IMG/VR virus record: IMGVR_UViG_3300045988_131014
Coordinates: 32,001-96,000 of that record
DNA from: a virus
DNA: 64,000 nucleotides
Strand: one strand, 5' to 3'
Shown in pieces: positions 15,070 to 43,094 of the stretch. Each line of letters begins with the position of its first letter. The first letter of the stretch is position 1. A program made the translations under genes and the position numbers. Under the pieces are notes generated by a model. The model was not told the DNA's origin. It made no database searches and was given only the letters and a program-made list of their open reading frames with translations.

Positions 15070-15261
15070 TGGTTTCATTTGGTTCTTAAAAAATCACTTA
15101 TTTTCAAATCAATCGCTCAAAACCCTTAATTTATAAGGCTTTCAGAGCATTGATTTTTATAAAATTAGACAAATCCTTAAAAATGCCGTATTTTACTCAA
15201 TTTTTGACGATTTTCAAATTTTCATGCCCTGCAACCCTTGATTTTACTAGGGTTACAGAGC
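15070..15261 (+). repeat. 192-bp inverted repeat, copy A
   Basis: Base-by-base reverse-complement identity with 42903-43094; similarity continues imperfectly for about 10-35 bp on both sides. Confidence 0.95.
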
Positions 15262-15297
15262 CAAGGAAATCCACGTTTCTTTTGAGGAGGTGATTGA

Positions 15298-15459
15298 TTG
15301 GATACATCGTGTGAAACTTGTAAATGTAATACATGTAAGATGAATGAAAATGGTGGTATTTATGGTGGATGTCTTGACTGTGAAAATTGCAAAGAACAAG
15401 ATTTACACTGTGAAGGTTGTTCAATGTATGAATATGACAAAGATAGACTGAGTAATTAA
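15298..15459 (+). CDS. small Cys-rich protein, 53 aa
   Basis: TTG start 7 nt after GAGGAGG; hand translation LDTSCETCKCNTCKMNENGGIYGGCLDCENCKEQDLHCEGCSMYEYDKDRLSN; below the ORF-track cutoff. Confidence 0.55.
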   Translation: MDTSCETCKCNTCKMNENGGIYGGCLDCENCKEQDLHCEGCSMYEYDKDRLSN

Positions 15460-15471
15460 GAGAATAATAGT

Positions 15472-15753
15472 ATGAATAAGAGACAGAAAAAGAAATTTAT
15501 TAAGAATAATATGACAAAGCTAAGGAAGATACATCCAAATGAAGGTGATATTGTAGTTCTTCAATGGAATCCAGATAGTGAATATATAAATTTTGACACC
15601 ATTGTTGAGTTCTATAAAGCTTGGGAGAATGCAGGAATTTTTGATAAATGCGGAGCTGCTATTGTTCCGTGCGACTTTAAGATTTTCAACAAGGAAGAAG
15701 CTCAGATATATATTGATAAGTTACAGAGCATTGTAGATCAGATGGGAGAATAA
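15472..15753 (+). CDS. hypothetical protein
   Basis: ORF on the coding strand; basic N-terminus. Confidence 0.55.
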   Translation: MNKRQKKKFIKNNMTKLRKIHPNEGDIVVLQWNPDSEYINFDTIVEFYKAWENAGIFDKCGAAIVPCDFKIFNKEEAQIYIDKLQSIVDQMGE

Positions 15754-15757
15754 GAAC

Positions 15758-16138
15758 ATGAGTAAATATAAGGTAAGTAATTATATTGCGAAAAAGTGGG
15801 AAGATATTTCAAAAGAGACACCAATGTATAAAGCTTATGAATTAGGTATAGCACAGGGAATGGCTTGGAGTTATGAAAATTTAAAATCTGCAACAGATAA
15901 GGAAACAGCAGATAAAATATGGCGTAATTATTTAGATGGAACAGATGAATTATGCACCATTTTTAGAACAATTGTTAATTTATCAAATGATGATACCAAT
16001 TCAAAAATTGAAAAATTAATGGAGAGACTATCTGAGACTAAGAAACCAGAAAAGGTTATGTCTGATGATGATAGAGATATGATTGAAGAGTTTCTTGAAT
16101 ATCTACAACATAAAAATGAAAATAAAAAGTCTAATTAA
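15758..16138 (+). CDS. hypothetical protein
   Basis: ORF on the coding strand; GGGAG RBS within the preceding stop region. Confidence 0.55.
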   Translation: MSKYKVSNYIAKKWEDISKETPMYKAYELGIAQGMAWSYENLKSATDKETADKIWRNYLDGTDELCTIFRTIVNLSNDDTNSKIEKLMERLSETKKPEKVMSDDDRDMIEEFLEYLQHKNENKKSN

Positions 16139-16244
16139 AGAAGCATTTCCTGTTGATTTTATCTAAGAGCGTTTCTGCTCACAATTTCCAAAATAAAAGA
16201 GAGAATAATTAAGCGACAATAAAAGTTTGAAGGAGATATGTTTT

Positions 16245-16937
16245 ATGAGTAAGAAGCAACAATTTAAAGGTTTGAAATTTAATTATTCCATAAATGGGAA
16301 AGGCTTGAAAAGTAAATATAAGACAATCAAGGATTTCTTAAACACAGAATTCCCAAAGAACAATAATCCATTGTCGCCTACTCTTGATACAGAGATTACA
16401 GGAATTAAATGGAATGGTAATACTATTTCTATTTCCAATAAAATTCACACAGTAAGAGATTTGGTTAACTTATTAAGCAAGAAAAATACAGAAAATGTTT
16501 TTATTTCAAATAAAGATATTAGATTGCATGAGTTTAAACCAAAACATGACAATCTCATCAGAAAATCCACGTACTCCATAGGAGAGGTACACGATAAGGT
16601 TAAAGATGTTTTATTTGAGAAAGATAAAAGACTTGCAAAAGTTGATTTCGATGGGGATTTAATTAAGGGTAACAGCCAGAGATACCAGACTTTTTTCACT
16701 AAAGGCTGTAAATGTGCAGTTTGTGGAATTGAAGGAAAATATTTTGCAAAAGAAAGACATTTGCAGGATAAGAATTATCATCTGAATTTGTATGCAGTTG
16801 ATGATAATGGTGATGAAATTTTAATGACAAAAGATCATATTATACCACGCTCAAAAGGTGGTATTGATGATATTAGTAACTATCAAACAATGTGTAAGCT
16901 TTGTAATGAAGCAAAAGGCAACAAATTAGAAGATTAA
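16245..16937 (+). CDS. HNH endonuclease
   Basis: C-terminal CAVCG..KDHIIPRSKGGIDDISNYQTMCKLCNEAKGNK (HNH with flanking Cys pairs); ATG 16245 behind AAGGAG. Confidence 0.8.
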   Translation: MSKKQQFKGLKFNYSINGKGLKSKYKTIKDFLNTEFPKNNNPLSPTLDTEITGIKWNGNTISISNKIHTVRDLVNLLSKKNTENVFISNKDIRLHEFKPKHDNLIRKSTYSIGEVHDKVKDVLFEKDKRLAKVDFDGDLIKGNSQRYQTFFTKGCKCAVCGIEGKYFAKERHLQDKNYHLNLYAVDDNGDEILMTKDHIIPRSKGGIDDISNYQTMCKLCNEAKGNKLED

Positions 16938-17009
16938 AAATAAGAAAGGAAAAATAGAAAAGTTCCTATAGGATAAAGTGCGCACTACTTACTAAGATAA
17001 GAGGAACTT

Positions 17010-18329
17010 ATGTATTGTGCTTATATCACAACATTAAAAGGATTAAGAAAACATAGTAACGCTGATAGATTACAGTGTGTAGAAGTATTTGGACAGAATG
17101 TAATTGTAGATTTGAGTTATCATGAAGGGCAGAAAGTGGTCTTCTTCCCATCTGACGGTCAGTTATCACTTGAGTATGCAACAGATAACAACCTTGTAAG
17201 GAAGAAAGACGAAAGCGGAAACAACATTGGTGGTTATATGGATGCTGAGAAGAGAAATGTAACCGCTATTAGACTTAGAGGTGAGAAGTCAGAAGGACTT
17301 GTATTACCTGTTGAGACGCTTTCTAAGTATACAGATATTTCAAAATTAAAAGATGGCGATCAGATTACAGTTCTTGGTGGTCATGAGATTTGTCAGAAAT
17401 ATATTCCTAGTGGAAAGAATCGTTCAAGAAGTGATGGAAATAGTTCAAATAAGAAGAACAAGTTTCAGAAAGAAACAGTATCATATCCATTTTTTGAGGA
17501 GCATAAAGATACTGCACAGCTTGCATATAATATGTCAGCATTTAAGCCAGGAGATACAATTTATATTACTCGTAAGCTCCATGGAACATCAGCTCGTACT
17601 ATGAAGACTGTTAAGGTTACAAAGAAGAATAGTAAACTGAGAAAGTTCTTACATATGCAGCCAAAGGTTACAAGAGAAGTTTCTGTTGTATCTGGTAGCA
17701 GAAGAGTTGTATTAAAGGATATGACAAAGAATGATGGATATTATTCTGATAATGGATTTAGAAAGAAGTACCACGATTTATTAAAAGACAAGCTTCCTGA
17801 GGGTGCTGAGATTTTCTATGAAATTGTAGGATATGTAAATGAAACAACACCAATTATGGGTTCAGTATCTAATAAAGGAGTTAAGGAAAAAGAATTTACA
17901 AAGAAATTTGGTGACATCACAACATTCTCATATGGTTGTGAGCCAGGCGAAAATGAGATGTATGTATATCGAATGACAATGACAACAGCAGACGGAACAG
18001 TTGTTGAAGTGCCTTGGGAGATTGTAGAGGTATGGTGTGACAAGTTGGGTGTTAAGCATGTACCTGATTTAGAGAAGTTTATTTTTACTACACCAGAAGA
18101 TTTGAAAGAAAGAGTAAATAAATATCTTGATGGTATGCCAGCAGATGAAATCGGTAAGACACATGTTGCCGAAGGTGTAGTTGTTCGTATTGATAACAGA
18201 GCAACATTCACGGCTTATAAGGATAAGGTGTTTGAATTTAAGGTAATTGAGGGGATCGCCAAAGATACATCTGATGTACCTGATATGGAAGAAGCTGAAG
18301 AATTATTTGAGGAGACTTTAAATGAATAA
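17010..18329 (+). CDS. ATP-dependent RNA ligase (Rnl5/DRB0094-like, N-terminal OB-type domain)
   Basis: RKLHGTSAR (nucleotidyltransferase motif I, KxxG) and N-terminal KHSNADRLQCVEVFGQNVIV resembling tRNA-binding OB domains. Confidence 0.6.
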   Translation: MYCAYITTLKGLRKHSNADRLQCVEVFGQNVIVDLSYHEGQKVVFFPSDGQLSLEYATDNNLVRKKDESGNNIGGYMDAEKRNVTAIRLRGEKSEGLVLPVETLSKYTDISKLKDGDQITVLGGHEICQKYIPSGKNRSRSDGNSSNKKNKFQKETVSYPFFEEHKDTAQLAYNMSAFKPGDTIYITRKLHGTSARTMKTVKVTKKNSKLRKFLHMQPKVTREVSVVSGSRRVVLKDMTKNDGYYSDNGFRKKYHDLLKDKLPEGAEIFYEIVGYVNETTPIMGSVSNKGVKEKEFTKKFGDITTFSYGCEPGENEMYVYRMTMTTADGTVVEVPWEIVEVWCDKLGVKHVPDLEKFIFTTPEDLKERVNKYLDGMPADEIGKTHVAEGVVVRIDNRATFTAYKDKVFEFKVIEGIAKDTSDVPDMEEAEELFEETLNE

Positions 18330-19212
18330 ACCTACAATGTGGGTACTCGTTTGACTGAGTGGTAGTGGCAAGTCAACCATTGCTACTCAGATTGCCAATG
18401 AGAATCCAAATACAGTAATCGTATCATCAGACGCAATTCGTGAAGAATTAACAGGTAATTACGAAGATCAAGAACATAACGAAGAAGTGTTTAAGATTTT
18501 TCACGATAGAATCCGCAAGAATTTGGAGAATAAAAAGAATGTAATTGCAGATGCAACTAATCTAACTATGAAATCTCGTAGAGCAATTATGATGAAAGTA
18601 AATGGTTTAAATGTCAGAAAAGTATGTGTAATTATTCCAAAGCCATTTAAACAGTGCAAAAAAGATAATCTACATAGAGAACATCCTGTACCTGATTTTG
18701 TGTTGGATAAGCAGATTAGAAAATATCAGATTCCGTTCTACGAGGAAGGATTCGATGAGATTATTATTCATAAATTTCATAATGCTAATGCAATGACCAC
18801 AGGTGGATTGATTGCTAAAATGAAAGATTTTGACCAGAAGAATCCTCATCATACTATGACTTTAGAAAATCATTGCTTTAATACATATGATTTATTTACA
18901 GAAAAAGGACATAAAGCTGAATACAATATTGGAGCAGTTCTTCATGATTATGGCAAACTATACTGCCAGACAATTGATGAAAATGGTATAGCTCATTATT
19001 ATGACCACCCATCTGTCGGATGCTATTTGGTTTTAGAGAGTTTAATGGAAGAGTTTAATAAGGTTGTATTAGATATATGTTTCCTCATCAATTACCATAT
19101 GATGCCTTTTAGTTGGGATACTGATAAAGCAAAGCAGCGTTGGAAAGAAAGATTTGGAGAATATAAATATAAGATGCTTTTAGATTTCAATGAATGTGAT
19201 AAAGCGAGGTAA
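18322..19212 (+). pseudogene. polynucleotide 5'-kinase (P-loop) fused to HD phosphohydrolase, interrupted by an in-frame TGA at 18352-18354
   Basis: MNKPTMWVLV-TGA-LSGSGKSTIATQI: the stop sits where the Walker A glycine is expected. Downstream are IADATNLTMKSRR, then HD-domain motifs PHHTMTLENH and AVLHDYGK. ATG 18322 overlaps the ligase stop. Confidence 0.65.
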
Positions 19213-19216
19213 GTGT

Positions 19217-19393
19217 ATGTGTAATCGTTGTGATTATGACTCACCTGATAATCGAATATATGTAGATCCATTGACGAATGAATATTATTTGGATATAGAA
19301 ACATCAGAATGGGATGAATATGACGATGGATTTGTTCATCAGGAAGAGTATATTGCATATTGTCCTTGGTGTGGAAGAAAGTTAGGAGAATAA
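19217..19393 (+). CDS. small zinc-ribbon protein, 58 aa
   Basis: MCNRCDY..YCPWCGRKLGE; ATG 19217 lies 8 nt after GAGG. Confidence 0.55.
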   Translation: MCNRCDYDSPDNRIYVDPLTNEYYLDIETSEWDEYDDGFVHQEEYIAYCPWCGRKLGE

Positions 19394-19397
19394 AGAT

Positions 19398-19871
19398 ATG
19401 AGGATAGAATTAATTAGATTAAAATTTAACGACACTCATTCGTACAAGTATAAGCCATTTAAGTATTGTTGTGATGAAATTCAGAATAATGAGTGCATAG
19501 AATTTACAAACGAAAATTTAACAAATTTTAATGTTGATTATGATAAAGAATATGGTTTTATTCCTCAGCTCTGTACTTCACATACAGAAGTTATTACATC
19601 GTATGAAGATGAATGGGAACAGACAGACAATTATCCAATCCAGTTTTGTCCTCATTGTGGCAAAAAGATTGAGATTTCAGTCGTAGAAGAGATTAATGTA
19701 TCTGATAAGTACAATGAATTATCTAAGCAGCGTAATGAATTATGGAAGAAGTGTCAGAGAACAGATAGTAAGAAGAAAGAATCTGAATTAAGAGAGCAAG
19801 TTAGAAAGCTTGATAAACAGATTGATAGTTTCTATTGGTTAGATGAGTGGAAAGAGGACGTATATGTATAA
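19398..19871 (+). CDS. hypothetical zinc-ribbon protein
   Basis: FCPHCGKKIE motif; GGAG RBS within the preceding stop region. Confidence 0.55.
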   Translation: MRIELIRLKFNDTHSYKYKPFKYCCDEIQNNECIEFTNENLTNFNVDYDKEYGFIPQLCTSHTEVITSYEDEWEQTDNYPIQFCPHCGKKIEISVVEEINVSDKYNELSKQRNELWKKCQRTDSKKKESELREQVRKLDKQIDSFYWLDEWKEDVYV

Positions 19872-20277
19872 ACAAATTATTATTGCTAGAAAAGATTTGA
19901 ATATGAGTTCTGGGAAGCTCGCAGCTCAAGTCAGCTACGGCTCTATGGCATTTCTTAGTTGGTTTATTAGAAATAATGCCGATTTAGATGGTCATGTCGA
20001 TGGCTATATTGACGAAGATATTCTTCACAATTGGATTGAGGGTGAATTTACAAAATGTGTTCTTCAAGCCAAGAATAAGAATCAGTTGCTAAAAGCTAAG
20101 ACTATGGCAGAAGAATTAGGAATGGTTGAAGGCAAAGATTTCTGGCTCATAAAGGATAACTATCACACTGAATTAGAACCAGAAGAAGATGGTAGAACAC
20201 TTACTGTAATTGGTTTTAGACCAATGGACAGTGAACTTATTGATCAGATTGGAAGAAAATATCATTTATATATGTAG
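19864..20277 (+). CDS. peptidyl-tRNA hydrolase 2 (PTH2)-like protein
   Basis: KQIIIARKDLNMSSGKLAAQVSYGS and C-terminal LTVIGFRPMDSELIDQIGRKYHLYM parallel the Pth2 pattern K.v.vvR.DL.M..GK.aAQ and ID..TG.LkLY. Confidence 0.65.
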   Translation: MYKQIIIARKDLNMSSGKLAAQVSYGSMAFLSWFIRNNADLDGHVDGYIDEDILHNWIEGEFTKCVLQAKNKNQLLKAKTMAEELGMVEGKDFWLIKDNYHTELEPEEDGRTLTVIGFRPMDSELIDQIGRKYHLYM

Positions 20278-20294
20278 AAATGGAGAATAATAAA

Positions 20295-20630
20295 ATGGCA
20301 AATAGATTATTATTTGAGAAAGATATTATTAGAGCAGTTGATAGGCATACGAATGACGATAGTAAGTTAGATGATGATATTAGCTGTATTCTTGAAGAAG
20401 TTGAAACAGCTACAATAGAACTTCCACCTATTATATTATCTCCAAAAGTAGAAACTAAACCAGTGCAGAAACAGAGACGAGTATTATTATTCGAGAATGA
20501 GAATCTTGACTTAGAGCAGCGTGGTAACAGATATTATTTATCCCTTTATGATAAGGAAGGAAAATTTCAGAGAGAAGTAACTATTGATGTAAAGGATGAC
20601 TATAAAGTTGGACTTGGGAATGGTAAGTAG
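20295..20630 (+). CDS. hypothetical protein
   Basis: ATG 20295 lies 9 nt after GGAG; an upstream in-frame ATG 20280 has no RBS. Confidence 0.5.
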   Translation: MANRLLFEKDIIRAVDRHTNDDSKLDDDISCILEEVETATIELPPIILSPKVETKPVQKQRRVLLFENENLDLEQRGNRYYLSLYDKEGKFQREVTIDVKDDYKVGLGNGK

Positions 20631-20639
20631 AGGAGTTTT

Positions 20640-20828
20640 ATGAGATCAGAGATTAAAAGACGACAATTTTCTGAAAATCATCAATCTTGGTTCTCCCATG
20701 ATTATGCTTGTTGGGCAAATAATCACAATGGTTGGAGAAAGATGAAAAAGAAGAATCGTAGATTATTCAAAAAGAAATATAGAAGAGAAGTTGAGAAAGA
20801 TATTAATAAAGAATTGAATGATATGTAA
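20640..20828 (+). CDS. small basic hypothetical protein
   Basis: AGAGGAG RBS; Lys/Arg-rich 62 aa. Confidence 0.5.
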   Translation: MRSEIKRRQFSENHQSWFSHDYACWANNHNGWRKMKKKNRRLFKKKYRREVEKDINKELNDM

Positions 20829-20891
20829 TAACAGTAAATTCAGGTTTCTTTTGGTTACAAAGAAAGAATATTAGAGCGAGGTGAACGATTA

Positions 20892-21518
20892 ATGTCTTTG
20901 GCATATAAAAATGACACATACAACTATAATGGCGAATATGAAATGGGTTCATTAAATAAGTTTGCACAAGCAGAAAGAAGATTGTCTGCAAAGAAACAAG
21001 CATTGGATGATATGAAGAATGAATATAACCTTATTGAACAACAAACATTTCGCATTTATAAAGAAAACATCCAGTATATGCTGCTTGATCAGCCGTCCAC
21101 GATTAAAATGTGTAGAGAATGGTTAAATATGTTATTAAAAAATCAGGATACGGACGGTAACAAGCTTGACAAAAGAAAGAAGTATAAAGAAAAGGAAACA
21201 TATGATTGGTATGTCAATTATATTAAAAAGCTTCTTGATATTGAGTATATGAATGATGTTAAATTCATTGACTTTAATTTTGGGCAAGCTACTAATATTC
21301 AGTTTGAATATAAAAAGCATAATTGGCGTTTAGAAATTCCTCATATTAAAGCTATCAAATTAGATGCATATAAGAATTATGGTGGCAGTGTATTTGAACT
21401 TGCGTTAGTACACAATGATATAGAATATAGTTGTAGTTGGTCGCAGTTTGGCTCTACATATGAGGAAGATGAATTAAGAGATATTATGACACAAGGTATT
21501 GAGAAATATTGTAATTAG
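20892..21518 (+). CDS. hypothetical protein
   Basis: GAGGTG RBS; ORF on the coding strand. Confidence 0.55.
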   Translation: MSLAYKNDTYNYNGEYEMGSLNKFAQAERRLSAKKQALDDMKNEYNLIEQQTFRIYKENIQYMLLDQPSTIKMCREWLNMLLKNQDTDGNKLDKRKKYKEKETYDWYVNYIKKLLDIEYMNDVKFIDFNFGQATNIQFEYKKHNWRLEIPHIKAIKLDAYKNYGGSVFELALVHNDIEYSCSWSQFGSTYEEDELRDIMTQGIEKYCN

Positions 21519-21577
21519 TTGGGAGTAACTTTACAAGAAAGCAACATATCCTTGGATTATTGAAAAGAGGTGATTGA

Positions 21578-22054
21578 GTGTTAGTACCTGCAATTTTATA
21601 TAAAGAACAGATTAAAAAAGAATTTCAGAAATATTACTATACAACAGATATGATGTACGAGACTGGTTGCATGTGCAATTGGAGTCCTGAAATTGCAGAA
21701 TGTCCAAATGAGAGTCAATTCCAATATGCAATAGTTGATAAGAACGAAAAAGTCATTGGCTACTTAGGATATTCAGTAGATTGGTATGCGTCTAAAGCGT
21801 ATAACTTTGGATTATTTTCATTTGACAGAGGGAATATCTTGGTTGGTAAGAATGTATTCGATAAATTAGAAGAATTGATTAAAACATTACATAGAGTTGA
21901 ATGGAGAGCTGTTGGTGGCAATCCTGCTTGTAGAGGATATGATAGCTTTATCGAGAGACATAATGGAACGAAACATGTTCTAAAAGATTCGATTAAAGAT
22001 AAGAATGGTAAATATCACGATGATATTATTTATGAGATTGTGAGTGGAGAATAA
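21578..22054 (+). CDS. possible GNAT-family acetyltransferase
   Basis: Size and VIGYLGYSV..LHRVEWRAVGGNPACRGYDSFIERHNG resemble the GNAT core; weak. Confidence 0.4.
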   Translation: MLVPAILYKEQIKKEFQKYYYTTDMMYETGCMCNWSPEIAECPNESQFQYAIVDKNEKVIGYLGYSVDWYASKAYNFGLFSFDRGNILVGKNVFDKLEELIKTLHRVEWRAVGGNPACRGYDSFIERHNGTKHVLKDSIKDKNGKYHDDIIYEIVSGE

Positions 22055-22075
22055 TACATTGGAGGTGAAAACATA

Positions 22076-22507
22076 ATGGAAATGTATACAGAGATTAATG
22101 TGTGTTTTGATTTGTTAAGGAACACACCGAAAGACATTGTAGATATTTTACATTGTCTTATAGAAGGAACAGATGCTCCTTTAATATTACCAGAACACAA
22201 ATTTTTCAGGTGTGATAGATGGAGTATGGTCGCTTGTTGTGACAGTTATTATTTTGATGGCTCAACTAACAGTAAAATGGTGTTTGATGATATTTCTAAA
22301 ACTTGGAAAATTAATATCAGAGCCAATTTGAAAAATTATGATTCTGAAATTGAAGAGTTTTTAGATTGGTTAGAGCCTTATATCGGAACAGATGGTTTTA
22401 TTGGATACATGAGATATGAAGAGTGGGAAGATCCAACATTAATTTATAATGATTTTGACAATGATAAAATTGTATTTAAATGCGTAGAAGCAGCAGAAGT
22501 TGAATAA
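22076..22507 (+). CDS. hypothetical protein
   Basis: GGAGGTG RBS; ORF on the coding strand. Confidence 0.55.
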   Translation: MEMYTEINVCFDLLRNTPKDIVDILHCLIEGTDAPLILPEHKFFRCDRWSMVACCDSYYFDGSTNSKMVFDDISKTWKINIRANLKNYDSEIEEFLDWLEPYIGTDGFIGYMRYEEWEDPTLIYNDFDNDKIVFKCVEAAEVE

Positions 22508-22528
22508 ATTTAAAGGAGAATATTAAAC

Positions 22529-22855
22529 ATGGAAACAATTTTAAGATTATTAGCAGAGAACCCAGAAAGTTTAGGAGAGGTAGTAAAAACATATATTACA
22601 AAGTACAAAGAGCCTGTATATGATGTTCTGAAGGAACTCATGATTATTGCAAAGGATTATTCTGAGAATACTGAGTATCCTGCAATTCAGGCGAGAACTA
22701 AGAAAAATATGTTTGATGCATATGTAAATGTTGGTTTTACTGAGGATCAGGCATTAGCACTTATGATTAACGATAATATTCAGCTTATGAAGAATATTCA
22801 GAAATCAGTTAATAATACTTCTGTAAAAAAAGAGCAAGTAGTGGTTTCTAAGTAA
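22529..22855 (+). CDS. hypothetical protein
   Basis: AAGGAG RBS; ORF on the coding strand. Confidence 0.55.
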   Translation: METILRLLAENPESLGEVVKTYITKYKEPVYDVLKELMIIAKDYSENTEYPAIQARTKKNMFDAYVNVGFTEDQALALMINDNIQLMKNIQKSVNNTSVKKEQVVVSK

Positions 22856-23034
22856 ACAAATCTTTCAAGCGAATTTTCAATCTTCACTCGATAGAATTTA
22901 TGTTCATTTCCTTGCTTATCAAATCCTTTAATAATGGATTTATCTAGCCAAAAGTAGCCTTCTTTCAGATCTTCTAATGGCTGTTTAGTCGTATCTCGCA
23001 AGAATGTAAGATACTCATTGTAAATTGGGTTCAC
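22798..23034 (-). CDS. possible antisense-oriented small gene (78 aa)
   Basis: The only sizeable ORF in the 245-bp gap 22856-23100; protein-like composition (KEGYFWLDKSIIKGFDKQGNEHKFYRVKIEN); GTG start, weak RBS; its 3' end overlaps the preceding + gene by 58 nt. Confidence 0.35.
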   Translation of the reverse strand: MNPIYNEYLTFLRDTTKQPLEDLKEGYFWLDKSIIKGFDKQGNEHKFYRVKIENSLERFVYLETTTCSFFTEVLLTDF

Positions 23035-23099
23035 TCATATACCTGAGTGTTATGTACATAACCTTTTAACTAGTATTATCCTTACCTTTCTTTGATTTT

Positions 23100-24284: not shown

Positions 24285-24405
24285 AACAGAGAATAATATG
24301 ATGTAACAATTAATCATATCTAAGCCATTCGGCTATGGGAATCCCAATAAATAAGAGAATATTACAGTGTAACCAATAAAAATATTACATATAAAGGATA
24401 TTGAA

Positions 24406-24957: not shown

Positions 24958-24960
24958 TCT

Positions 24961-25722: not shown

Positions 25723-25750
25723 GATTTTTTCAAGTGAGGTTAAAGGATAA

Positions 25751-25963: not shown

Positions 25964-26011
25964 AATTTTAAATGAATTTTTTCTTTCCCTTGGATAGATT
26001 GGAGGTATTAT

Positions 26012-26200: not shown

Positions 26201-26204
26201 CATT

Positions 26205-29129: not shown

Positions 29130-29144
29130 GTGAAAGGAAAACAT

Positions 29145-31006: not shown

Positions 31007-32161
31007 ATGGCAAAAGCAAGAAAAGCGTCAGTAACAGAAAGTAAATTAGGAATGATTTTATATGGTAAACCATTTACAGGTAAATCAACTATGGCAATGC
31101 AACTTGCGTATTTTAAGCGTCCTAATGGAAAGCCTTTCAGAGTTTTATATCTTGATCCTGAGTCTGGTTCAATTGATGATTACCTTGGCGATTTAGAAGC
31201 AAATGGTGTAAATCTTGAAAATATTTATATTGTTTATACACAGTCTCTTGGAGAAGTAAGACAGTATATTGCAAAGGTAAAGAATAATGAAGATTTTTAT
31301 GAGTTAGACGATGATGGCAATGAAACAGATGATGTTGTTGTAGATGCGGATGGAGAACCATTTAGAGCAGATGCAATCGTTGTTGATGGCACTACAATTC
31401 TTAATTTAACAACAAAACAGGGATTAGTAGAGTTCTCTAAAAAGAGAAATAAGGTTAAAGCTGACAAAGATGGACTTGTAGGAGATGCTAGGCTCGTAAA
31501 AATTGAAGGTGCTGGAATGGAATTAAAGGATTACCAGACTGTTAATTTTAAAGGTCAGGATTTAATTCTTGATTTAATGTCATCTGGTGTTCATTATATT
31601 GTAACTGCAAGAGAAACAGATGAGAAGGAAACAATTAAGTTACCTGATGGAACAACTCAGAGTGTGGTTACTGGAAGAAAGATTCCAGATGGATTTAAAG
31701 GAATGGATCACAATGTTAAGACTGAGATTCGTATGTTTAGAAATGAAGACGGAACAGTTTGTGCATGGATTGAAAAGGATAGAACCCATGTACATGATGA
31801 TTATGTAACTATTGAAGATCCAACATTGGTTGACTGGCAGGCAGTTATTGATAAAACAGCAGGAAAATCAAAATTCGTTCTCAAGAATGATTTAACAAAA
31901 GCTGTTGATATTGAGCAGGATATTTATAGAAAGGAAATTCTTGGTCAGGTTGGCGAACCAGCTGAAGAGGATACTACATCTAATGATGGGCATGCAGATA
32001 TTGAAGTGATTAAGAAAGAAATCATTGCTAAAAGAAATGCACTTCCACCAATTGAGAAGAAAGCCATGAAGGAAAAACTTGAAGCAGCAGGACTTCCTAC
32101 AGCATACAAGAATGTGACTGATGTTGAGATTCTTAATAAAGTATTAGCAATGTTTGATTAA
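31007..32161 (+). CDS. RecA-fold ATPase (AAA_24/Sak4-like recombination protein)
   Basis: MILYGKPFTGKSTMAMQLA Walker A and AIVVDGTT Walker B-like. Confidence 0.6.
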   Translation: MAKARKASVTESKLGMILYGKPFTGKSTMAMQLAYFKRPNGKPFRVLYLDPESGSIDDYLGDLEANGVNLENIYIVYTQSLGEVRQYIAKVKNNEDFYELDDDGNETDDVVVDADGEPFRADAIVVDGTTILNLTTKQGLVEFSKKRNKVKADKDGLVGDARLVKIEGAGMELKDYQTVNFKGQDLILDLMSSGVHYIVTARETDEKETIKLPDGTTQSVVTGRKIPDGFKGMDHNVKTEIRMFRNEDGTVCAWIEKDRTHVHDDYVTIEDPTLVDWQAVIDKTAGKSKFVLKNDLTKAVDIEQDIYRKEILGQVGEPAEEDTTSNDGHADIEVIKKEIIAKRNALPPIEKKAMKEKLEAAGLPTAYKNVTDVEILNKVLAMFD

Positions 32162-32186
32162 ATTTGGCTTATGTAAAGGTAGGATT

Positions 32187-32879: not shown

Positions 32880-32888
32880 GAGATAATA

Positions 32889-34442: not shown

Positions 34443-34457
34443 TTGGAGGGTGGCAGC

Positions 34458-35483: not shown

Positions 35484-35489
35484 GAAGGT

Positions 35490-37265
35490 GTGTATTTGAA
35501 GTACAAATTATATGAAAATAGCGACAATAACACTTCTAATGTATTAGAGGAAGTTTTAAGAAATAGAGGAGTTGACGATTATGAAAAATATCTCAACTTA
35601 GATGAAAGCGTTTTAATTCCATATGAGAATTTGGACAATATAAATAAAGCAGTAGAGTTATTTATGAAACACTTTAATAACAAGGATAAAATTGAAATAC
35701 TTGTTGATGAAGATCCAGACGGATTTTGTTCAGCAGCTATGATGTATTCTTATATTAAGAAAATGAATGCTGATTATCCAGTTAATTACATATTACATAC
35801 AAGAGCAAAGGCACATGGACTAGATGATGATATTGTGATATCTAATGATACAAGATTATTGATTATCCCTGATGCTGGTACAAATGACACAGAACAGTGC
35901 AGAGAGCTTTCAGAAAATGGTATTGATATACTTATTCTTGATCACCATGAGTCAGAAGAAAAAAATCCATATGCATTGATTGTAAATAATCAAATGAGTA
36001 ACAATTATTCTAATAAGGATTTTTGCGGAGCAGGTGTTGTATATAAGTTTTTACAAGCATTAGATGCTGAGACATGGAATGAGTTTGCAGATGACTATTT
36101 AGATTTGTGTGCATTAGCAAATATTAGCGATGTTATGGATATGCGTTCATTTGAGACAAGATATATTACAAATCTTGGATTACTCAATATTACAAATAAA
36201 TGTTTTCAGGCACTTATTAAAGCACAAGATTACAGTATAAATGGTAAGGTTAATATTCACAATATCCAATGGTATATAACACCTATTTTGAACGGAATGA
36301 TCCGTATCGGTTCAAGTGATGAAAAGGAATTATTATTTAGAGCTTTTATTGAAAAAGATGAGTTCTTTGAATATAAAAAAAGAGCCACAAAGAATAAACC
36401 AGCAGAAACAATTCAAGAAAGCATTTATGATAGAACTGCTAGACTTTGTAAAAATGCAAAATCACGACAAGATAAAATGAAAGAAAAAGGCGTAAAAGCC
36501 ATTTCAGAAGTTGTAGATAATCTTCCAATTGATGATAAAGTTATTATGGTTGATGTATCTGACTTACTTGATAGTGGATTAACTGGTGTTGTAGCAATTA
36601 AAATTGCAGAGCAATATAATAAACCTTGCATTCTGCTAAAGAAACATTTTGATAAAAAGACAAAAACAACTGTATTTGGTGGTAGTGCAAGAAATATTGA
36701 TAATAGTCCAATTGATAGTTTTAAAGATATTGTTAATTCAACAGGATTCATTAATGGTAAAGGTCATGCAAATGCTTTTGGTATTGTAGATTTACCAGTT
36801 GATGATAAAGAAAAAGCAATTAATATGATGAACAGTATTCTTAAAAATACTGAATATGATTCTACATATCGTGTAGATTTTATCTTAGACATTAATCATG
36901 TCACAATCCCTTTAATTATTAAGTTATCACAGTTTGAAGATATTATTTGTCAAGGAATTGATGAACCTATGCTTGCAATAGAGAATATATCATTGACAAG
37001 AGATTGTTTTGAAGTATTTGGCAAGAATGAGGATACTATTAGTTTTATGGTGAATGATATTAAATACATTCAGTTCAAATGTAAAGAAGGTAATCAGCTA
37101 TATGATTTTCTTCAAAACGCATGGGATGATAACGATAGTATTACATTTAATATTGTCGGAAAACCTTCAATAAACGAATATAACGGTATTAGAACACCAC
37201 AGATTATTATCGAAGATGTAGCTGTTATTAGTACAAATAGTAACGATGAAGACGATGATTGGTAG
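35490..37265 (+). CDS. RecJ-like DHH-family ssDNA exonuclease
   Basis: VDEDPDGFCSAA, IIPDAGT, ILDHHE, FCGAGVVYKF and GKGHANAFG motifs; the start could be GTG 35490 or TTG 35496. Confidence 0.75.
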   Translation: MYLKYKLYENSDNNTSNVLEEVLRNRGVDDYEKYLNLDESVLIPYENLDNINKAVELFMKHFNNKDKIEILVDEDPDGFCSAAMMYSYIKKMNADYPVNYILHTRAKAHGLDDDIVISNDTRLLIIPDAGTNDTEQCRELSENGIDILILDHHESEEKNPYALIVNNQMSNNYSNKDFCGAGVVYKFLQALDAETWNEFADDYLDLCALANISDVMDMRSFETRYITNLGLLNITNKCFQALIKAQDYSINGKVNIHNIQWYITPILNGMIRIGSSDEKELLFRAFIEKDEFFEYKKRATKNKPAETIQESIYDRTARLCKNAKSRQDKMKEKGVKAISEVVDNLPIDDKVIMVDVSDLLDSGLTGVVAIKIAEQYNKPCILLKKHFDKKTKTTVFGGSARNIDNSPIDSFKDIVNSTGFINGKGHANAFGIVDLPVDDKEKAINMMNSILKNTEYDSTYRVDFILDINHVTIPLIIKLSQFEDIICQGIDEPMLAIENISLTRDCFEVFGKNEDTISFMVNDIKYIQFKCKEGNQLYDFLQNAWDDNDSITFNIVGKPSINEYNGIRTPQIIIEDVAVISTNSNDEDDDW

Positions 37266-37275
37266 GAGGTGAGTT

Positions 37276-40200
37276 ATGTATAGTTCATTACATAACCATA
37301 CATATTATTCATTACTTGATGGATATGGTAGTCCAAAAGAAATGTTGGACAGAGCAAAAGAAATAGGGTTAAAAGCATTTGCTATAACAGAACACGGAAA
37401 TGTATATAGCCACATTTATTTTGACTTAATCAAGAAGGATTATCCAGAAATTAAAATGATATATGGATGTGAGTTATATGAGTGTGAAGATATAGAAATT
37501 AAGGATAAAGACAACAAATATTTCCATTTGATTTGCTTGATTAGGAATGAACAGGGCAGAAAAGATTTAAACAAAGTTATTACAAAGAGTAACTTTGAAG
37601 GGTTTTATTTTAAACCACGATGCACAGTAGAAGATATTAAACCCTATGCTGAAAATTTTGTTATTTCTTCTGCTTGTTTAGCAAGTAAGTTAGCAAGAGA
37701 GTCAGATTTTGAAAAGTGTATTGAATATGTTAATGAATATAAAGAAGCTTTTCCTTATTTCTTTCTTGAGATGCAGTCACATTCTCATCAGGATCAGTGT
37801 TTATATAACCAGAAAATCTTAGAACTTTCAAAAAGAACAAATACCCCATTTATTATTACAACAGATAGTCATGCACCTAAAAAAGAAGATTTGTATTATC
37901 AGGACAAACTTATTCAGATTGGTAGAAAAAGTAGTAACAATGACAAAAATGCTATCGAAAATAGTGAGATATATGAAGGTTGCTATATGCAATCTGAAGA
38001 TGAAATCCATGAAATTATGGATAGTCAGATTGGATATGAAAACGTATGTCTTGGATTAGAGAATACTAATAAGGTAGCAGATTTAATTGAAAATGTAGAT
38101 ATGCCATTTCAGAAGCCACAGTTACCTACATTCCCATTGCCTGATGGATATAGAGATAATAATGAATTTTTATGGCATTTAGTGAGACAAGGTTGGAAAG
38201 ATAGAGGATATGATAATCTTAGCGAAGATGAACAGCAAGTAAGAAGAACTAGATTGAACTACGAGATGGGTGTTATTCATTCGATGGGGTTCGATGGTTA
38301 TTTCTTGTTCGTATGGGACTTTATTAAGGCTGCTGAGAAACTTGGAATTGAAGTTGGTAAAGGAAGAGGAAGTGCAGCAGGTTCTTTAGTTTGTTATTGT
38401 TGTCATATCACAGATATTGATCCGATTAAATATGGACTCATTTTTGAGAGATTCTTAAATCCTGAACGAGTAGGACTTCCTGATATTGATACAGATGTTG
38501 GTAATAGAGATGCAATCATTGATTACCTTGTAGACAAATATGGAGAAGAAAGAGTATGTCAAATTATTAACTACTCGTATATTACTCCAACAGTTGCAAT
38601 TACTGACGTTGGTAAAATACTTGGATTTCCATATAATCAGATGCAAAAACTTTCACAGAAATTTACATTCGATAAATGGGATGACTGTATGAAAGCAAAC
38701 CCAAATTTACTCGCAGACAATCCACAATATACTGATTTGTTTGATATTGCAAAGCATTTAAGTGGTCGTGTTAAAACAGTTTCTATTCATGCTGGTGGTG
38801 TTGGCATCGTTGATACAACAATTAATGACTATATGCCAATGAAAATAGGAACTAAGGGCGAGCATGTAATTCAAGTTGATAAACATTATGTAGAAGACAT
38901 TGGAATTGTAAAGTTTGACCTTCTTGGAGTAGCAACACTTAATCTTGTGAAGGAAATTAAGGATGATTTACACTTAAATCCTTGGGATTATGATATCAAT
39001 AATCCAGAATTTGAGAATGACAGAGCTACATATGAATTATTAGCAAGTGGTAAAACTAATGGTGTATTCCAGGTTGAATCAGCAGGAATGAAAGATTTGC
39101 TTATTCGATTAAAACCAAAGCTTGAACAACTAGACTTTGAGGTTATATCTGTCATCTTGGCATTATATAGACCTGATAGTATGGGAGCACTTGACGAGTA
39201 TGTTGAAATGGCAACAGGTGGAAGTAGACCACCATCAATTCATCCAGATATGGATGAAATTTTAAAAGACACAAATTACTGTATGATTTATCAGGAACAG
39301 CTTCTTGATATTGTTAAAAAGTTTGGTGGAAGAACATACGGTGGTGCTGACTTATTTCGTAAGGCGATTGGAAAAAAGATAGTTGAATTAGTACAGAAAG
39401 AGTCAGAAATTCTTCGTGGTGAAATTGTAGCAAACGGATATTCTAAAGAAATTGCTGATAAAATTGCGAATGAACTATCACAAAAAGGCGGTTATCTATT
39501 CAATAAATCGCATTCATACAGTTACGCAGTCCTTTGTTTCGAGACAGCTTGGTTCAAAGCTCATTACCCAACTTACTTTTTCAAAGCATTGTTCAATCAG
39601 AACAAAGATAAAGCAGGTGCAATTAATAAGTATATTCTTGATGCAAGGTATTTTAATGTGGATATTATGCCACCGAATATCAATCATTCTGGAATGAATT
39701 TCACAGTTGATAAAGATAAGGTTCTTTTTGGATTATCTGCTATTGGTGGAATTGGTGAATCACTCTCTAAGCAAATTATCGAAGAAAGAGAGAATAATGG
39801 TATATACAAATCGTTTAATGATTTGATTCAGAGACTTTCTTTAGGTAAGGCATCTGTTATTGCACTGATAAAATCTGGTGCAATTCCTTGTAAAAATAAG
39901 CGTGAAAAACTTATATCATATCTTAAATCAGAGTATCAACCATTAAAATTCTCAGAAGTTCAATCATTGCCTACCTATAAGAAACTCGAAGAAGATTGGA
40001 ACATTAACTTAAAGAAGTACGTAATTCCTTCATCTGGAAAACGAATTGTATATGACAAGGAAGCACTACTTGCTGAATATAACAGATTGAAAAAGATACA
40101 GTTTGAAGAAAATCAGAAGGTAAGATTCCAAAAGTACATAGATGATAACAAAAAATATCTTGAAGATGAAAAGTTTTGGGAATTCCAAACATTACAGGTA

Positions 40201-40545
40201 TTTATCAATGATAATCCATTTGATGCAGCTTATACATTCTTGACACCATTTGAGGATGTACCTGATGGTGAGAAATGTACTTTAGTTGGAATTATAGCAA
40301 AGGTTCAAAAGAAGAAAGATAAGAATGGTAAGCAATTCGCATATATAAATATCTATTCAAGTTTTGGGCTTGTTGAAGGAATTGTATGGCATAGTCAATT
40401 AAAAGAATATGAAGATTTAGTAAAAAAAGGACAGCAAGTAGCAATTCTTTGTAAGAAAGATAGCGAAGAAAAAGTGATTGTAGAAAAATTAAAGCCATAT
40501 AGTAAATGGCTTGAATATGTGAGAAAGAAAGGAGTATCAGTCTAA
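37276..40545 (+). CDS. dnaE: DNA polymerase III alpha subunit (DnaE-type, PHP domain)
   Basis: LHNHTYYSLLDG (PHP), GKGRGSAAGSLVCYC, LPDIDTD, FDLLGVATL, VFQVES and NKSHSYSYA motifs; 1089 aa. Confidence 0.9.
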   Translation: MYSSLHNHTYYSLLDGYGSPKEMLDRAKEIGLKAFAITEHGNVYSHIYFDLIKKDYPEIKMIYGCELYECEDIEIKDKDNKYFHLICLIRNEQGRKDLNKVITKSNFEGFYFKPRCTVEDIKPYAENFVISSACLASKLARESDFEKCIEYVNEYKEAFPYFFLEMQSHSHQDQCLYNQKILELSKRTNTPFIITTDSHAPKKEDLYYQDKLIQIGRKSSNNDKNAIENSEIYEGCYMQSEDEIHEIMDSQIGYENVCLGLENTNKVADLIENVDMPFQKPQLPTFPLPDGYRDNNEFLWHLVRQGWKDRGYDNLSEDEQQVRRTRLNYEMGVIHSMGFDGYFLFVWDFIKAAEKLGIEVGKGRGSAAGSLVCYCCHITDIDPIKYGLIFERFLNPERVGLPDIDTDVGNRDAIIDYLVDKYGEERVCQIINYSYITPTVAITDVGKILGFPYNQMQKLSQKFTFDKWDDCMKANPNLLADNPQYTDLFDIAKHLSGRVKTVSIHAGGVGIVDTTINDYMPMKIGTKGEHVIQVDKHYVEDIGIVKFDLLGVATLNLVKEIKDDLHLNPWDYDINNPEFENDRATYELLASGKTNGVFQVESAGMKDLLIRLKPKLEQLDFEVISVILALYRPDSMGALDEYVEMATGGSRPPSIHPDMDEILKDTNYCMIYQEQLLDIVKKFGGRTYGGADLFRKAIGKKIVELVQKESEILRGEIVANGYSKEIADKIANELSQKGGYLFNKSHSYSYAVLCFETAWFKAHYPTYFFKALFNQNKDKAGAINKYILDARYFNVDIMPPNINHSGMNFTVDKDKVLFGLSAIGGIGESLSKQIIEERENNGIYKSFNDLIQRLSLGKASVIALIKSGAIPCKNKREKLISYLKSEYQPLKFSEVQSLPTYKKLEEDWNINLKKYVIPSSGKRIVYDKEALLAEYNRLKKIQFEENQKVRFQKYIDDNKKYLEDEKFWEFQTLQVFINDNPFDAAYTFLTPFEDVPDGEKCTLVGIIAKVQKKKDKNGKQFAYINIYSSFGLVEGIVWHSQLKEYEDLVKKGQQVAILCKKDSEEKVIVEKLKPYSKWLEYVRKKGVSV

Positions 40546-40546
40546 A

Positions 40547-42829
40547 TTGGATGAAGATGAGATTTATAAATTCACAGCGATAATTACATATGAGCAATAC
40601 TATTCGGATGATTCAACGTGGGGTGTGTTTGGATTTTCAACAAAAGATGATATTCCATTCTTTACAAAACCTACAAAAACATTCGATCCGTTTTGTGATA
40701 ATAATTCTGCAAATGATACTGATGATAAAAAAATGAGTAAGCTGGCAGGAAAGATGCAACACTTAGTTGTTGGTGGAGAATATGTGGTTAAGGCGAAATA
40801 TAAAAAGGATAAAAAATATGGCGATCAATATACACCGATTGCCATATACGCCATTATTCCACAAAGCAGAGAAACACAGTTATTATTTTTGAAGTCAATG
40901 ATTCCTGAATGGATGGCTGATAATTTAATAAATGCATATCCAAATGTAGTTAATGATGTAGCGAATGGTACATTAAAAACTATTGATTACAGTCTTGTAA
41001 AAGGTGTTAGAGAAATTACTTGGAATAAAATCAAGAAAAAAATCATCAATAATTATCTCATTTCTGACATTATCTCAATGCTAAAACCAATTGGTGTCAC
41101 TTATGCAATGATTAAAAAATTGCTTTCAGAAGAACCAAATCCAGTTTTATTAAAGCAAGAGTTAGAAAAAAATCCATACATCATGACAAAAATTGATGGA
41201 ATTGGGTTTCGCAAATGTGATGATTTAGCATTGAAGCTAAAACCTGAACTGATTGATTCTACACAAAGACTTGTGGCTTTTATCCAATACTATTTCAAAG
41301 ATCTAGGAGAAAGTAAAGGTCATACATGGTGTTCTGAAAAGATTTTAAGGGCAGCCATAAGTAATAATATATACGAGTGTTGCAATAAGGTTGATTGGCT
41401 ATTAGAAAATAATGACTTTCTTCATATTGATAATGGTCGAATTGGTCTGAAATATTATTACGATATTGAGATGCAGATTTATCATTTGATTCTGAATAAA
41501 TCTCAAATTGAAACAACAATCAATATTTCTGATGAAGCGATTGATAAAGCAATTAAACATGCAGAAGAAGAACAAGGATTTGATTATGTAGTAGAGCAGT
41601 TAGACACGATTCATAAGAGCTTACATAGAACTGTTAGTTTGATAACTGGAAAAGCAGGAACTGGTAAAACATCAATAATGCGAGCAATTGTTAAGGCTTA
41701 TATGGAGAATAATTATATGATGACAGCTTCAGCACTTTCAGCAATGGCAGCTCAAAGAATTACAGAAGCAACAGAATTTCCTGCAATGACTATTCATAGA
41801 ACACTTGGATGCCAAGGTTTAAATGATTTTACATACAATAAGTATAATCATTTGATTACAGATGTTGCATTTCTTGATGAGGGAAGTATGGTTAATGCTA
41901 GTTTATTTTTGCATTGGCTTGAGGCAATTGGAGATAATACAAGAATTATTATTTCAGGAGATCATAAGCAGTTACCACCTATCGGATTTGGTAACGTGTT
42001 CTCAGATTTAATAGAAATGTTTGATGATTCAGTAGTAAGTAAATTAGTAAAGCCAATGAGACAGGCTAAAAAATCAGGTATTCTTGTTGATGCAAATAAG
42101 ATTCGTGAGAATATAAATCCTATATCTGAGAAGTTACAGCCACGAATTATTCATGGTGAATTACAGGATATGTATTATATGTTCCGTACAAATCGACAGT
42201 CATTATTTAATATTGCTATTAAGACATTCATCAAATCTGTTAAATCAGATGGAATCGACAATGTGGTTATTGCAGTACCTCGTAGAAAAGATTGTTTGAA
42301 TAGTACCAATGAAATTAACAAGGTTATTCAAAATGAATTACTTGGTGATGTTTTAGAGAGTATTGAAGGTTTTGATACAACTTTCAAACTTGGTGCAAAA
42401 GTCATGCAAACAGTTAATGATTATGACAAAAATGTATTTAATGGTGAGATTGGTTATGTGACAAAAATCAGTGAAAGATATGATGGTAAGAAAAAAGAAG
42501 AGTATTGTGAAGTAACTTACACTGATATTTTTGGAAAAGACAAAATTATTGAATACACAAAGAAAGAGTTAGCTGCTTTGGATCTTGCTTATGCTATGAC
42601 AGTACATAAATTGCAGGGTGCTGGTCGAAAGACGGTAATTGGTATTATTGACAATACACATCATCAGCTTCTTGATAACTGTATGCTTTATACATTATTG
42701 ACTAGAGCAAAGAAGAGGTGTTTGTTGTTAGCAGAGCCAGAAGCATTTTTACAGTGCATTAGAACAAGTCATAACAATAGAAATACTTGGATGATGTTAG
42801 AAACAGAGAATAATACAGCAGAAGAGTAA
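40547..42829 (+). CDS. RecD/RecD2-like SF1 DNA helicase
   Basis: ITGKAGTGKTS (Walker A), FLDEGSMV, ISGDHKQLPPIG, AMTVHKLQGAG and LYTLLTRAKKR motifs. Confidence 0.85.
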   Translation: MDEDEIYKFTAIITYEQYYSDDSTWGVFGFSTKDDIPFFTKPTKTFDPFCDNNSANDTDDKKMSKLAGKMQHLVVGGEYVVKAKYKKDKKYGDQYTPIAIYAIIPQSRETQLLFLKSMIPEWMADNLINAYPNVVNDVANGTLKTIDYSLVKGVREITWNKIKKKIINNYLISDIISMLKPIGVTYAMIKKLLSEEPNPVLLKQELEKNPYIMTKIDGIGFRKCDDLALKLKPELIDSTQRLVAFIQYYFKDLGESKGHTWCSEKILRAAISNNIYECCNKVDWLLENNDFLHIDNGRIGLKYYYDIEMQIYHLILNKSQIETTINISDEAIDKAIKHAEEEQGFDYVVEQLDTIHKSLHRTVSLITGKAGTGKTSIMRAIVKAYMENNYMMTASALSAMAAQRITEATEFPAMTIHRTLGCQGLNDFTYNKYNHLITDVAFLDEGSMVNASLFLHWLEAIGDNTRIIISGDHKQLPPIGFGNVFSDLIEMFDDSVVSKLVKPMRQAKKSGILVDANKIRENINPISEKLQPRIIHGELQDMYYMFRTNRQSLFNIAIKTFIKSVKSDGIDNVVIAVPRRKDCLNSTNEINKVIQNELLGDVLESIEGFDTTFKLGAKVMQTVNDYDKNVFNGEIGYVTKISERYDGKKKEEYCEVTYTDIFGKDKIIEYTKKELAALDLAYAMTVHKLQGAGRKTVIGIIDNTHHQLLDNCMLYTLLTRAKKRCLLLAEPEAFLQCIRTSHNNRNTWMMLETENNTAEE

Positions 42830-42902
42830 TTTGGATTTCTGGAATGCCCATAAATAGGGCGTTTCAGAGACTCAAAAAGCCAAGGAAAGACGGATTTCAT
42901 TC

Positions 42903-43094
42903 GCTCTGTAACCCTAGTAAAATCAAGGGTTGCAGGGCATGAAAATTTGAAAATCGTCAAAAATTGAGTAAAATACGGCATTTTTAAGGATTTGTCTAAT
43001 TTTATAAAAATCAATGCTCTGAAAGCCTTATAAATTAAGGGTTTTGAGCGATTGATTTGAAAATAAGTGATTTTTTAAGAACCAAATGAAACCA
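42903..43094 (-). repeat. 192-bp inverted repeat, copy B
   Basis: Exact reverse complement of 15070-15261. Confidence 0.95.

Follow-up and report, generated by a model that had tools for sequence, protein, structure and literature searches.

A recent inverted copy of an intergenic cassette at palindromic linkers probably accounts for a perfect inverted repeat around the replication genes of a gut phage

Why should the replication genes of a phage lie between two perfect, oppositely oriented copies of a short non-coding sequence, and does the segment between them turn over? The question is raised by a 64,000-nt stretch of viral DNA (IMG/VR record IMGVR_UViG_3300045988_131014, positions 32,001 to 96,000), hereafter called the window, in which positions 15070–15261 (the left arm) are the exact reverse complement of positions 42903–43094 (the right arm) at 192 of 192 bases. 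The bases immediately outside the arms mismatch; with mismatches allowed, the repeat extends to 224 nt at 96% identity (15059–15282 and 42882–43105). A perfect repeat of 192 nt cannot have arisen by chance, and the next largest repeats in the window measure at most 49 nt at ~75% identity, none being on the scale of the arms. The left arm lies between a stop at 15059 and the ribosome-binding site (RBS) and start at ~15298, and the right arm between the stop of a RecD-like helicase gene at 42829 and a start at 43115; both are intergenic and overlapped by spurious open reading frames (ORFs) only. The 27.6 kb between them encode an HNH endonuclease, an RNA ligase, a kinase, PTH2, SSB, a DnaE-type polymerase, a RecJ-like protein, and the RecD-like helicase. 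An earlier note on this DNA had described the perfect repeat, the weaker similarity beyond both arm ends, the intergenic position of both copies, the lack of any other duplication of this size, the enclosed genes (HNH, RNA repair, and the replisome through the helicase), and a hairpin within the arms, found here at 15229–15258 and 42906–42935, and it was right on each count. To explain the arrangement it had invoked recent duplication or ongoing gene conversion, inversion of the block into two genome isomers and, alternatively, duplicated regulatory or origin elements.

The repeat is real and is no artefact of assembly. The left arm is found in at least four independent metagenome assemblies (ERZ827518, ERZ28659983, ERR912143, and JGI 3300029850). 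NODE_53 of ERZ827518 is 100% identical to window 11673–18059 and crosses the left arm; its end corresponds, by coordinate arithmetic, to window position 42957, 55 nt inside the right arm. Scaffold_131 of ERZ28659983 is 100% identical to window 39047–44329 and crosses the right arm. From ERR912143, a MEGAHIT contig of 27,925 nt corresponds exactly to window 15125–43039, with inverted ends of 127 nt, while the JGI contig begins 55 nt, and a Logan contig 31 nt, into the left arm. Such breaks inside the arms are as expected of a true inverted repeat longer than the assembler k-mer length (k).

The best explanation, to which we give a probability of roughly two in three (0.68), is that the left arm arose by a recent, lineage-specific inverted duplication, through short homologies at palindromic linkers, of a regulatory spacer cassette resembling the promoter-early stem-loop (PeSL) elements of T4-type phages. 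Its bracketing of the replication block looks incidental. The argument rests on where the cassette occurs among relatives, on which way round it lies, and on where homology to those relatives begins and ends.

The window belongs to a large group of ~150-kb viral contigs from the human gut. Among GenBank phages, the DNA of the arm and that of 13 kb of the block are without match, and the closest phage isolates share 34% DnaE identity or less. Relatives of the helicase at 73–82% identity occur in genome assemblies of Roseburia, Acetatifactor, and other Lachnospiraceae, and these relatives point to Lachnospiraceae as the probable hosts. At the right site, comparison was made with 80 IMG/VR loci whose helicase is 73–99% identical to that of the window: only three have the arm sequence downstream of the helicase and 77 lack it, nearly all other helicase relatives sharing homology with the window to ~42899 and diverging thereafter. 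A scan for the cassette with a conserved 29-mer (its −10 region) found 8 viral and 10 metagenome contigs, and no exact match to this 29-mer was found in GTDB genomes. Some 20 related contigs carry one cassette each, in the same sense as the right arm, within a variable stretch after the RecD-like helicase, and the genes neighbouring these single copies vary from contig to contig. The right arm (plus strand) is the cassette at its usual site and in its usual orientation, here termed sense.

The left arm (minus strand) is confined to the sub-lineage of the window. A close copy of the arm was found at the left site in 0 of 80 relatives, and of ten places that encode an identical upstream 128-aa protein, the one in the window's own lineage alone has the arm. 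One related contig, L146, carries at its left site a full-length, ~60% diverged homolog of the cassette, in sense orientation between two linker motifs, and no second copy of this variant was found elsewhere in the L146 genome. A short BLAST hit had placed the L146 element in the orientation of the left arm, a reading rejected after a profile search and full alignment; the hit was misleading because the hairpin is palindromic. No antisense copy is known other than the left arm in the window lineage, and the inverted pair occurs in no relative. Gene content beside both sites varies among relatives that are 93–100% identical in the flanks. The 192-bp unit thus exists in related genomes, where the earlier note had suggested looking for it (~20 single-copy contigs, three of 80 relatives at the right site and none at the left), and the restriction of the left copy to one sub-lineage supports the recent duplication that the note had proposed. 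Ongoing gene conversion, its other proposal, becomes unnecessary as an explanation of the perfect identity, since the 192-bp core is also identical to the single-copy versions in contigs L001, L185, L186, and L197.

Each copy is bracketed by two instances of the palindrome GAAA-N6-TTTC, which start at 15063 and 15266 for the left copy and at 42885 and 43088 for the right; the window contains 13 such motifs where 3.5 would be expected. The upstream linker of the right copy, GAAAGACGGATTTC (42885–42898), lies where relatives lose homology (~42892–42910) and is retained in the empty site of contig L069, and the downstream linker, GAAACCATTATTTC (43088–43101), also at a homology breakpoint, moves together with the leader of the methyltransferase gene that starts at 43115. 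On the left, GAAATTTTGGTTTC (15063–15076) forms the outer junction and is part of the recipient site, contigs that are 100% identical to the window up to 15076 diverging directly after it; GAAATCCACGTTTC (15266–15279) forms the inner junction just upstream of the RBS of the gene at 15298, where relatives regain homology (15259–15272). Homology breakpoints against relatives fall into six clusters (13340–45, 13529–65, 15054–84, 15259–72, 42892–910, and 43091–114), all on GAAA-N6-TTTC; four of the six motif instances flank the arms, and the other two, at 13327 and 13529, flank another swapped cassette. Precise empty sites exist at the right locus: L069 retains the upstream motif, L200 and L202 retain the downstream motif only, and in L195, L196, and L198 the downstream motif follows different upstream genes. 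An exchange inside the motif accounts for the difference between empty and filled sites.

The same motif recurs in a canonical intergenic module of this phage group, made up of a hairpin (of the CTCTGAAA..CCC-loop-GGG..TTTCAGAG type), an A-rich spacer, GAAA-N6-TTTC, an RBS, and a gene. Hairpin H0, directly after the helicase stop (42830–42876, plus strand), is part of such a module; it is present in relatives with or without the cassette, with 98.9% of cells paired in the sense strand. Behind the helicase gene of several Lachnospiraceae genome relatives (L208, L211, and L212), the module can still be made out, and this presence of hairpin and linker in bacterial genomes indicates that the module is older than the 192-bp cassette. 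In L208, L209, and L212 (Roseburia sp. 1XD42-69, Acetatifactor muris DSM 23669, and a Lachnospiraceae metagenome-assembled genome), a long near-perfect palindrome, AGTCTATATATAG...CTATATATAGACT, sits ~60–130 nt past the helicase stop; GAAATAGGACTTTC stands after it in L208 and L212, and in L211 after a different hairpin. Cassette-like sequence is also met inside a gene: nrdG (about 51568–52223), which encodes the anaerobic ribonucleotide reductase activase, has an in-frame 87-nt insertion within 51822–51937, absent from L024, L036, and L027 and present in L041. Over about 48 nt, this insertion shows 75% identity to the initial part of the arm (the H1 hairpin region, in sense), and the insertion ends right at a conserved in-gene motif, GAAATCCGTATTTC.

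The junctions of the left copy can be read to the base. At the outer one, the recipient (...AAAAGAAATTTTGGTTTC / TTGGCTTG), the donor (...AAAAGAAATAATGGTTTC / ATTTGGTTC), and the product (...AAAAGAAATTTTGGTTTC / ATTTGGTTC) place the crossover inside a 7-nt microhomology, TGGTTTC, within an 18-nt stretch with two differences. The inner junction has the form ...GGGTTACAGAGC / CAAGGAAATCC in the window, with an AGC microhomology. In the MEGAHIT contig from ERR912143 (L189), it is instead a hybrid hairpin, ...ACTAGG / CTTTCAGAGGTTGAAAAAGCC..., with an extra GTTGAAAAAG and an AGG microhomology; the Logan contig from the same sample (L192) has the window form (equivalent to window 15245–15275). That both versions occur in ERR912143 suggests that either exchange is still going on, between the arms or with relatives that lack the arm, or two strains share the sample. 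Junctions that vary and follow homology in this way fit short-homology recombination or template switching and do not fit fixed-site transposition.

The likely course of events is as follows. The ~190-bp, non-coding, hairpin-rich cassette normally sits as a single sense copy between two GAAA-N6-TTTC motifs after the RecD-like helicase gene. In the sub-lineage of the window, a second copy would recently have been pasted backwards between two other such motifs, after the gene at 14673–15059, a hypervariable junction, where it would have replaced whatever cassette was then in place. Because the motif is palindromic, it offers short homology in either orientation, and the junctions are consistent with copying by short-homology recombination or by microhomology-mediated template switching during replication.

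What the cassette does at its native site may be judged from its predicted structure. Hairpin H1 occupies 42904–42937 (plus strand; left copy 15227–15260), and variation among copies keeps its stem through G·U pairs in the sense strand only; H2, long and imperfect, occupies 43010–43056 (plus strand; left copy 15108–15154) and is the best conserved part of the ~60% diverged L146 homolog. Between them, a putative sigma-70-like promoter, TTGAAA-N16-TAAAAT (42947–42974, plus strand), matches at 10 of 12 positions and faces the methyltransferase gene; its counterpart in the left copy (15217–15190, minus strand) points antisense into the upstream gene. The region 42830–43115 is predicted to fold into three strong hairpins, H0, H1, and H2, in sense, at −91 kcal/mol (z −7.7) versus −65 kcal/mol in antisense (z −4.2). 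Across 18 variants, sense pairing reaches 93%–99% with 147 G·U cells, versus 77%–83% with 18 G·U cells in antisense, although the structure used for this comparison was itself predicted on the sense strand. On the left, the transcribed strand is the weaker-folding one. Searches of the arm against Rfam gave nothing credible even at permissive E-values, only two tRNAs in the window passing the gathering threshold, and no tRNA or tmRNA lies in the arms. We infer a PeSL-like transcript-boundary or promoter spacer, in which the hairpins would end or stabilise the replication-gene transcript, and the promoter and structured leader would serve the next gene. The duplicated regulatory element that the earlier note had considered is plausible as a description of the unit itself and unsupported as one of a bracket around the replication block.

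Several observations weigh against this account. The G·U asymmetry could stem in part from a G-rich coding strand. Promoter-like matches in the region are no more numerous than in shuffled sequence, the DNA being AT-rich, and the conservation of the −10 region among copies is partly a matter of ascertainment, as that 29-mer was the search pattern. The hairpins lack U-tracts, and a terminator scan called none. Direct repeats of 5 bp, GAAAT, lie on either side of each copy in the manner of a target-site duplication, which keeps a dedicated insertion mechanism conceivable. The coexisting inner-junction variants hint at gene conversion, possibly with crossovers, and would fit these better than a single frozen event; minority inverted isomers, moreover, would be invisible in assemblies.

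PeSLs, the nearest known parallel, are mobile regulatory cassettes of T4-type phages that mark the breakpoints of modular shuffling, with crossovers at the loop, in the stem, or between the boxes (Arbiol et al. 2010, PMC2839356; Comeau et al. 2014, PMC4122927). The cassette described here resembles them in being small, non-coding, and intergenic, with stem-loops and a sigma-70-like promoter (here a predicted match), and in lying within a hyperplastic region; in close relatives, too, the breakpoints of indels and replacements fall in conserved intergenic sequence, at varying points within the cassette. There is, however, no sequence relationship, and phage group and host differ, the present phage being Lachnospiraceae-associated and having a DnaE-type polymerase. 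The linker here is a short palindrome, GAAA-N6-TTTC, with a hairpin, whereas that of PeSLs is a promoter/terminator consensus of ~100 bp. PeSLs are also dispersed in many copies per genome that share ~100 bp, whereas the 192-bp unit is present twice in the window and once in relatives; within the window, only the short linker (13 copies) and hairpins of the CTCTG...CAGAG type recur. An inverted duplication is, finally, of a kind that the PeSL papers do not describe.

The inverted repeat does create the potential for inversion by homologous recombination, and among the alternatives the one that survives best, though it is rather unlikely, is that recombination between the arms flips the 27.6-kb block, so that two isomers coexist in the population. 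A perfect 192-bp inverted repeat is ample substrate; the phage encodes a RecJ-like protein, SSB, a RecD-like helicase, and an AAA_24-like ATPase (a weak Pfam match below the curated cut-off); the ends of the block would, after inversion, probably lie beside identical arm sequence and so keep their local regulatory context; and the two inner-junction variants in one sample suggest that the arms still recombine. There is also a precedent in Anabaena cyanophages, in which a ~30-kb region between inverted repeats of 400–700 nt, conserved at matching positions in nine phages, is invertible, both isomers having been shown by PCR and read mapping (bioRxiv 10.64898/2026.02.14.705889). The two cases are alike in having a segment of ~28–30 kb between inverted repeats of a few hundred bp and in lacking an identified dedicated invertase, but differ in that the repeat of the window is found in one sub-lineage only, is not conserved among relatives, and appears in a single orientation in the assemblies.

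Other evidence runs against inversion. All arm-crossing contigs show the standard arrangement (L173 and L188 through the left arm, L197 and L206 through the right), and the fact that SPAdes could resolve the left arm in ERZ827518 speaks against a 50:50 mixture in that sample. All 15 IMG/VR relatives with both flanking markers are collinear with the window; neither the inverted repeat nor an inverted block is present in any relative, and a search of the contigs that encode exactly the flanking proteins found no inverted-isomer junction. Between 1 and ~54.7 kb, every gene lies on the plus strand, so that an inverted block would oppose the surrounding transcription; GC skew is uniformly positive through both arms, and no break in it, sought at the arms as a sign of recent inversion, was found. 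Well-known invertible segments such as Mu G, P1 C, the Hin/Gin/Cin systems, and fim-type switches run by tyrosine recombinases use sites of ~10–35 bp, an adjacent invertase gene, and segments of 0.3–4 kb that control tail-fibre or surface genes. Inverted repeats flank a segment of the phage genome here as well, but the arms are 192 bp long, no invertase gene adjoins them, and what lies between is a 27.6-kb stretch of replication genes. No serine invertase was found by Pfam and PHROG scans, which covered the larger ORFs of the block and its surroundings, and the three tyrosine recombinase genes (3–725, 53670–54725, and 55500–56348) are all more than 10 kb from either arm. The two genome isomers of the earlier note, conceivable in principle, find no support here, and nothing suggests that inversion of the block is used or tolerated. 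Of the two observations by which that note would have recognised an incidental duplication, a single orientation is indeed all that the assemblies show, and absence from relatives applies to the inverted pair, the unit itself being present as a single copy in ~20 contigs.

Active mobility of the cassette is a distinctly unlikely alternative. A phage enzyme would target GAAA-N6-TTTC and insert the cassette either way round, in the manner of a MITE, a homing element, or an integron cassette; one of the three tyrosine recombinases, or the HNH endonuclease encoded 1 kb from the left arm, might be the mover. The GAAAT direct repeats, with targets resembling AAAAGAAATCC, would agree with this, as would the precise empty sites and the cassette-related insertions at three motif sites (the right site; the left, sense in L146 and antisense in the window; and the 48-nt nrdG fragment next to GAAATCCGTATTTC). 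A 198-bp insertion with a 5-bp GAAAT duplication, first read from the L069 empty site, was nonetheless dropped, as the recipients already had the full GAAA-N6-TTTC, and the apparent target duplications are, on comparison with the empty sites, halves of motifs that were there beforehand. The cassette lacks terminal inverted repeats, its two ends not being reverse complements of one another; each genome has one or two copies only; and the recombinase genes, distant from the arms, look like integration or resolution functions. The varying junctions (at TGGTTTC, AGC, and AGG, and within GAAA or TTTC) favour homology-guided exchange over fixed cleavage. REP, BIME, REPIN, and MITE repeats can number from tens to hundreds and are linked to a transposase, be it a RAYT or another kind, and MITEs have terminal inverted repeats and fixed target-site duplications. 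The cassette is similar to these families in being hairpin-forming, non-coding, and intergenic, in occurring in either orientation, and in having its structure favoured on the transcribed strand, but the high copy number, the link to a transposase, the terminal inverted repeats, and the fixed target-site duplications are not seen here.

It is also improbable, if a related thought, that the hairpin and GAAA-N6-TTTC are the sites of a dedicated, integron-like system of cassette exchange, run by a tyrosine recombinase or a nuclease, that inserts, deletes, and flips cassettes. Were there such a system, the inverted copy, the sense copy of L146, and the nrdG fragment would be its products, and the window lineage could flip its whole replication module as a by-product.

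A bracket maintained by selection is very unlikely; the arms would in that case be duplicated regulatory or origin elements, such as paired insulators, convergent or divergent promoters, or two origins. The arms do lie at both edges of the replication-gene block, are AT-rich and filled with hairpins, and have promoter-like hexamers on both strands, and the lineage that carries the repeat persists in at least four samples. Most relatives, however, express and replicate the same block with no copy or one, the left copy lies in the orientation less favourable to RNA folding, the promoter-like matches are no more frequent than chance would give, and no repeated short motifs of the kind typical of origins were noticed within the arms. 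That the arms contain a replication origin, the alternative raised by the earlier note, is unlikely because most relatives lack the element (77 of the 80 with a 73–99% identical helicase). For an architectural role of the repeat around the block, genome comparison gives no support, because those 77 relatives do without the unit, the inverted pair is found in none of the relatives, and all copies other than the left one are in sense. A chimeric or misjoined metagenomic contig, which the earlier note had allowed for, is scarcely credible: the source does resemble a low-coverage metagenome assembly (NODE_53 has a coverage of 6.8) and several assemblies break within the arms, but the same left-arm junctions recur in four samples with different assemblers, their microhomologies of 3–7 nt are far shorter than any assembler k-mer, so that the junctions must exist in the reads, and breaks 31, 55, and 127 nt into the arm are those of a genuine repeat longer than k.

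If the short-homology duplication is accepted, the locus would offer a young, junction-resolved example of genome reshuffling in large temperate phages of gut Lachnospiraceae. Exchanges would start and stop at a short palindromic intergenic linker, and cassettes could therefore enter either way round. The 'conserved linker' model of modular evolution, drawn from the PeSLs of T4-type phages that infect Gram-negative bacteria, would thereby come to cover an uncultivated phage group unrelated to them, with GAAA-N6-TTTC as a concrete motif for protein-binding tests. A natural strain whose 27.6-kb replication module lies between perfect inverted repeats also provides a ready test of whether such a block inverts and whether inversion is tolerated.

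Some further observations concern the cassette and the window more widely. In L185, a 1.3-kb gut contig (OKVA01010902.1), the arm begins at position 447, and the 5′ half of H1 is replaced by GC-richer DNA (positions 1–446) that ends, as judged by eye, in an apparent tyrosine recombinase C-terminus ~100 nt from the junction; the remainder is 100% identical to the arm core. This is either an integrative element within the hairpin or a chimeric contig. A second recurrent sequence, the 9-mer AGAGAATAA, has 25 occurrences in the window, where 2.1 would be expected, and every one of them is on the same strand as the genes around it (for example at 8536, 13849, 14645, 15459, 27226, 42805, and 43848, with one minus-strand instance at 60043). 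It stands mostly at gene junctions, 0–25 nt upstream of the next start, and often provides a TAA stop; the homology breakpoints of some relatives coincide with it (13844–59, 14652–62, and 42799–42833). The 9-mer could be a phage-specific promoter, processing, or re-initiation signal. Genes for tRNA-Gln (TTG) and tRNA-Met (CAT) lie at 2266–2339 and 2494–2569, in a 400-nt intergenic stretch, and by eye near-consensus sigma-70 promoters are found close to the tRNAs at ~1200–1230 and ~2040.

Two of the three tyrosine recombinase genes lie at a strand switch at ~54.7–55.0 kb, where gene orientation and GC skew flip; those at 3–725 and 53670–54725 are on the plus strand and that at 55500–56348 is on the minus strand. 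A direct repeat of 39 nt and 79% identity (55279–55317 and 57262–57300) flanks the XerC/D-like gene, and many IMG/VR relatives stop close by, 13–16 kb downstream from the helicase, as though a prophage boundary or attachment region lay here.

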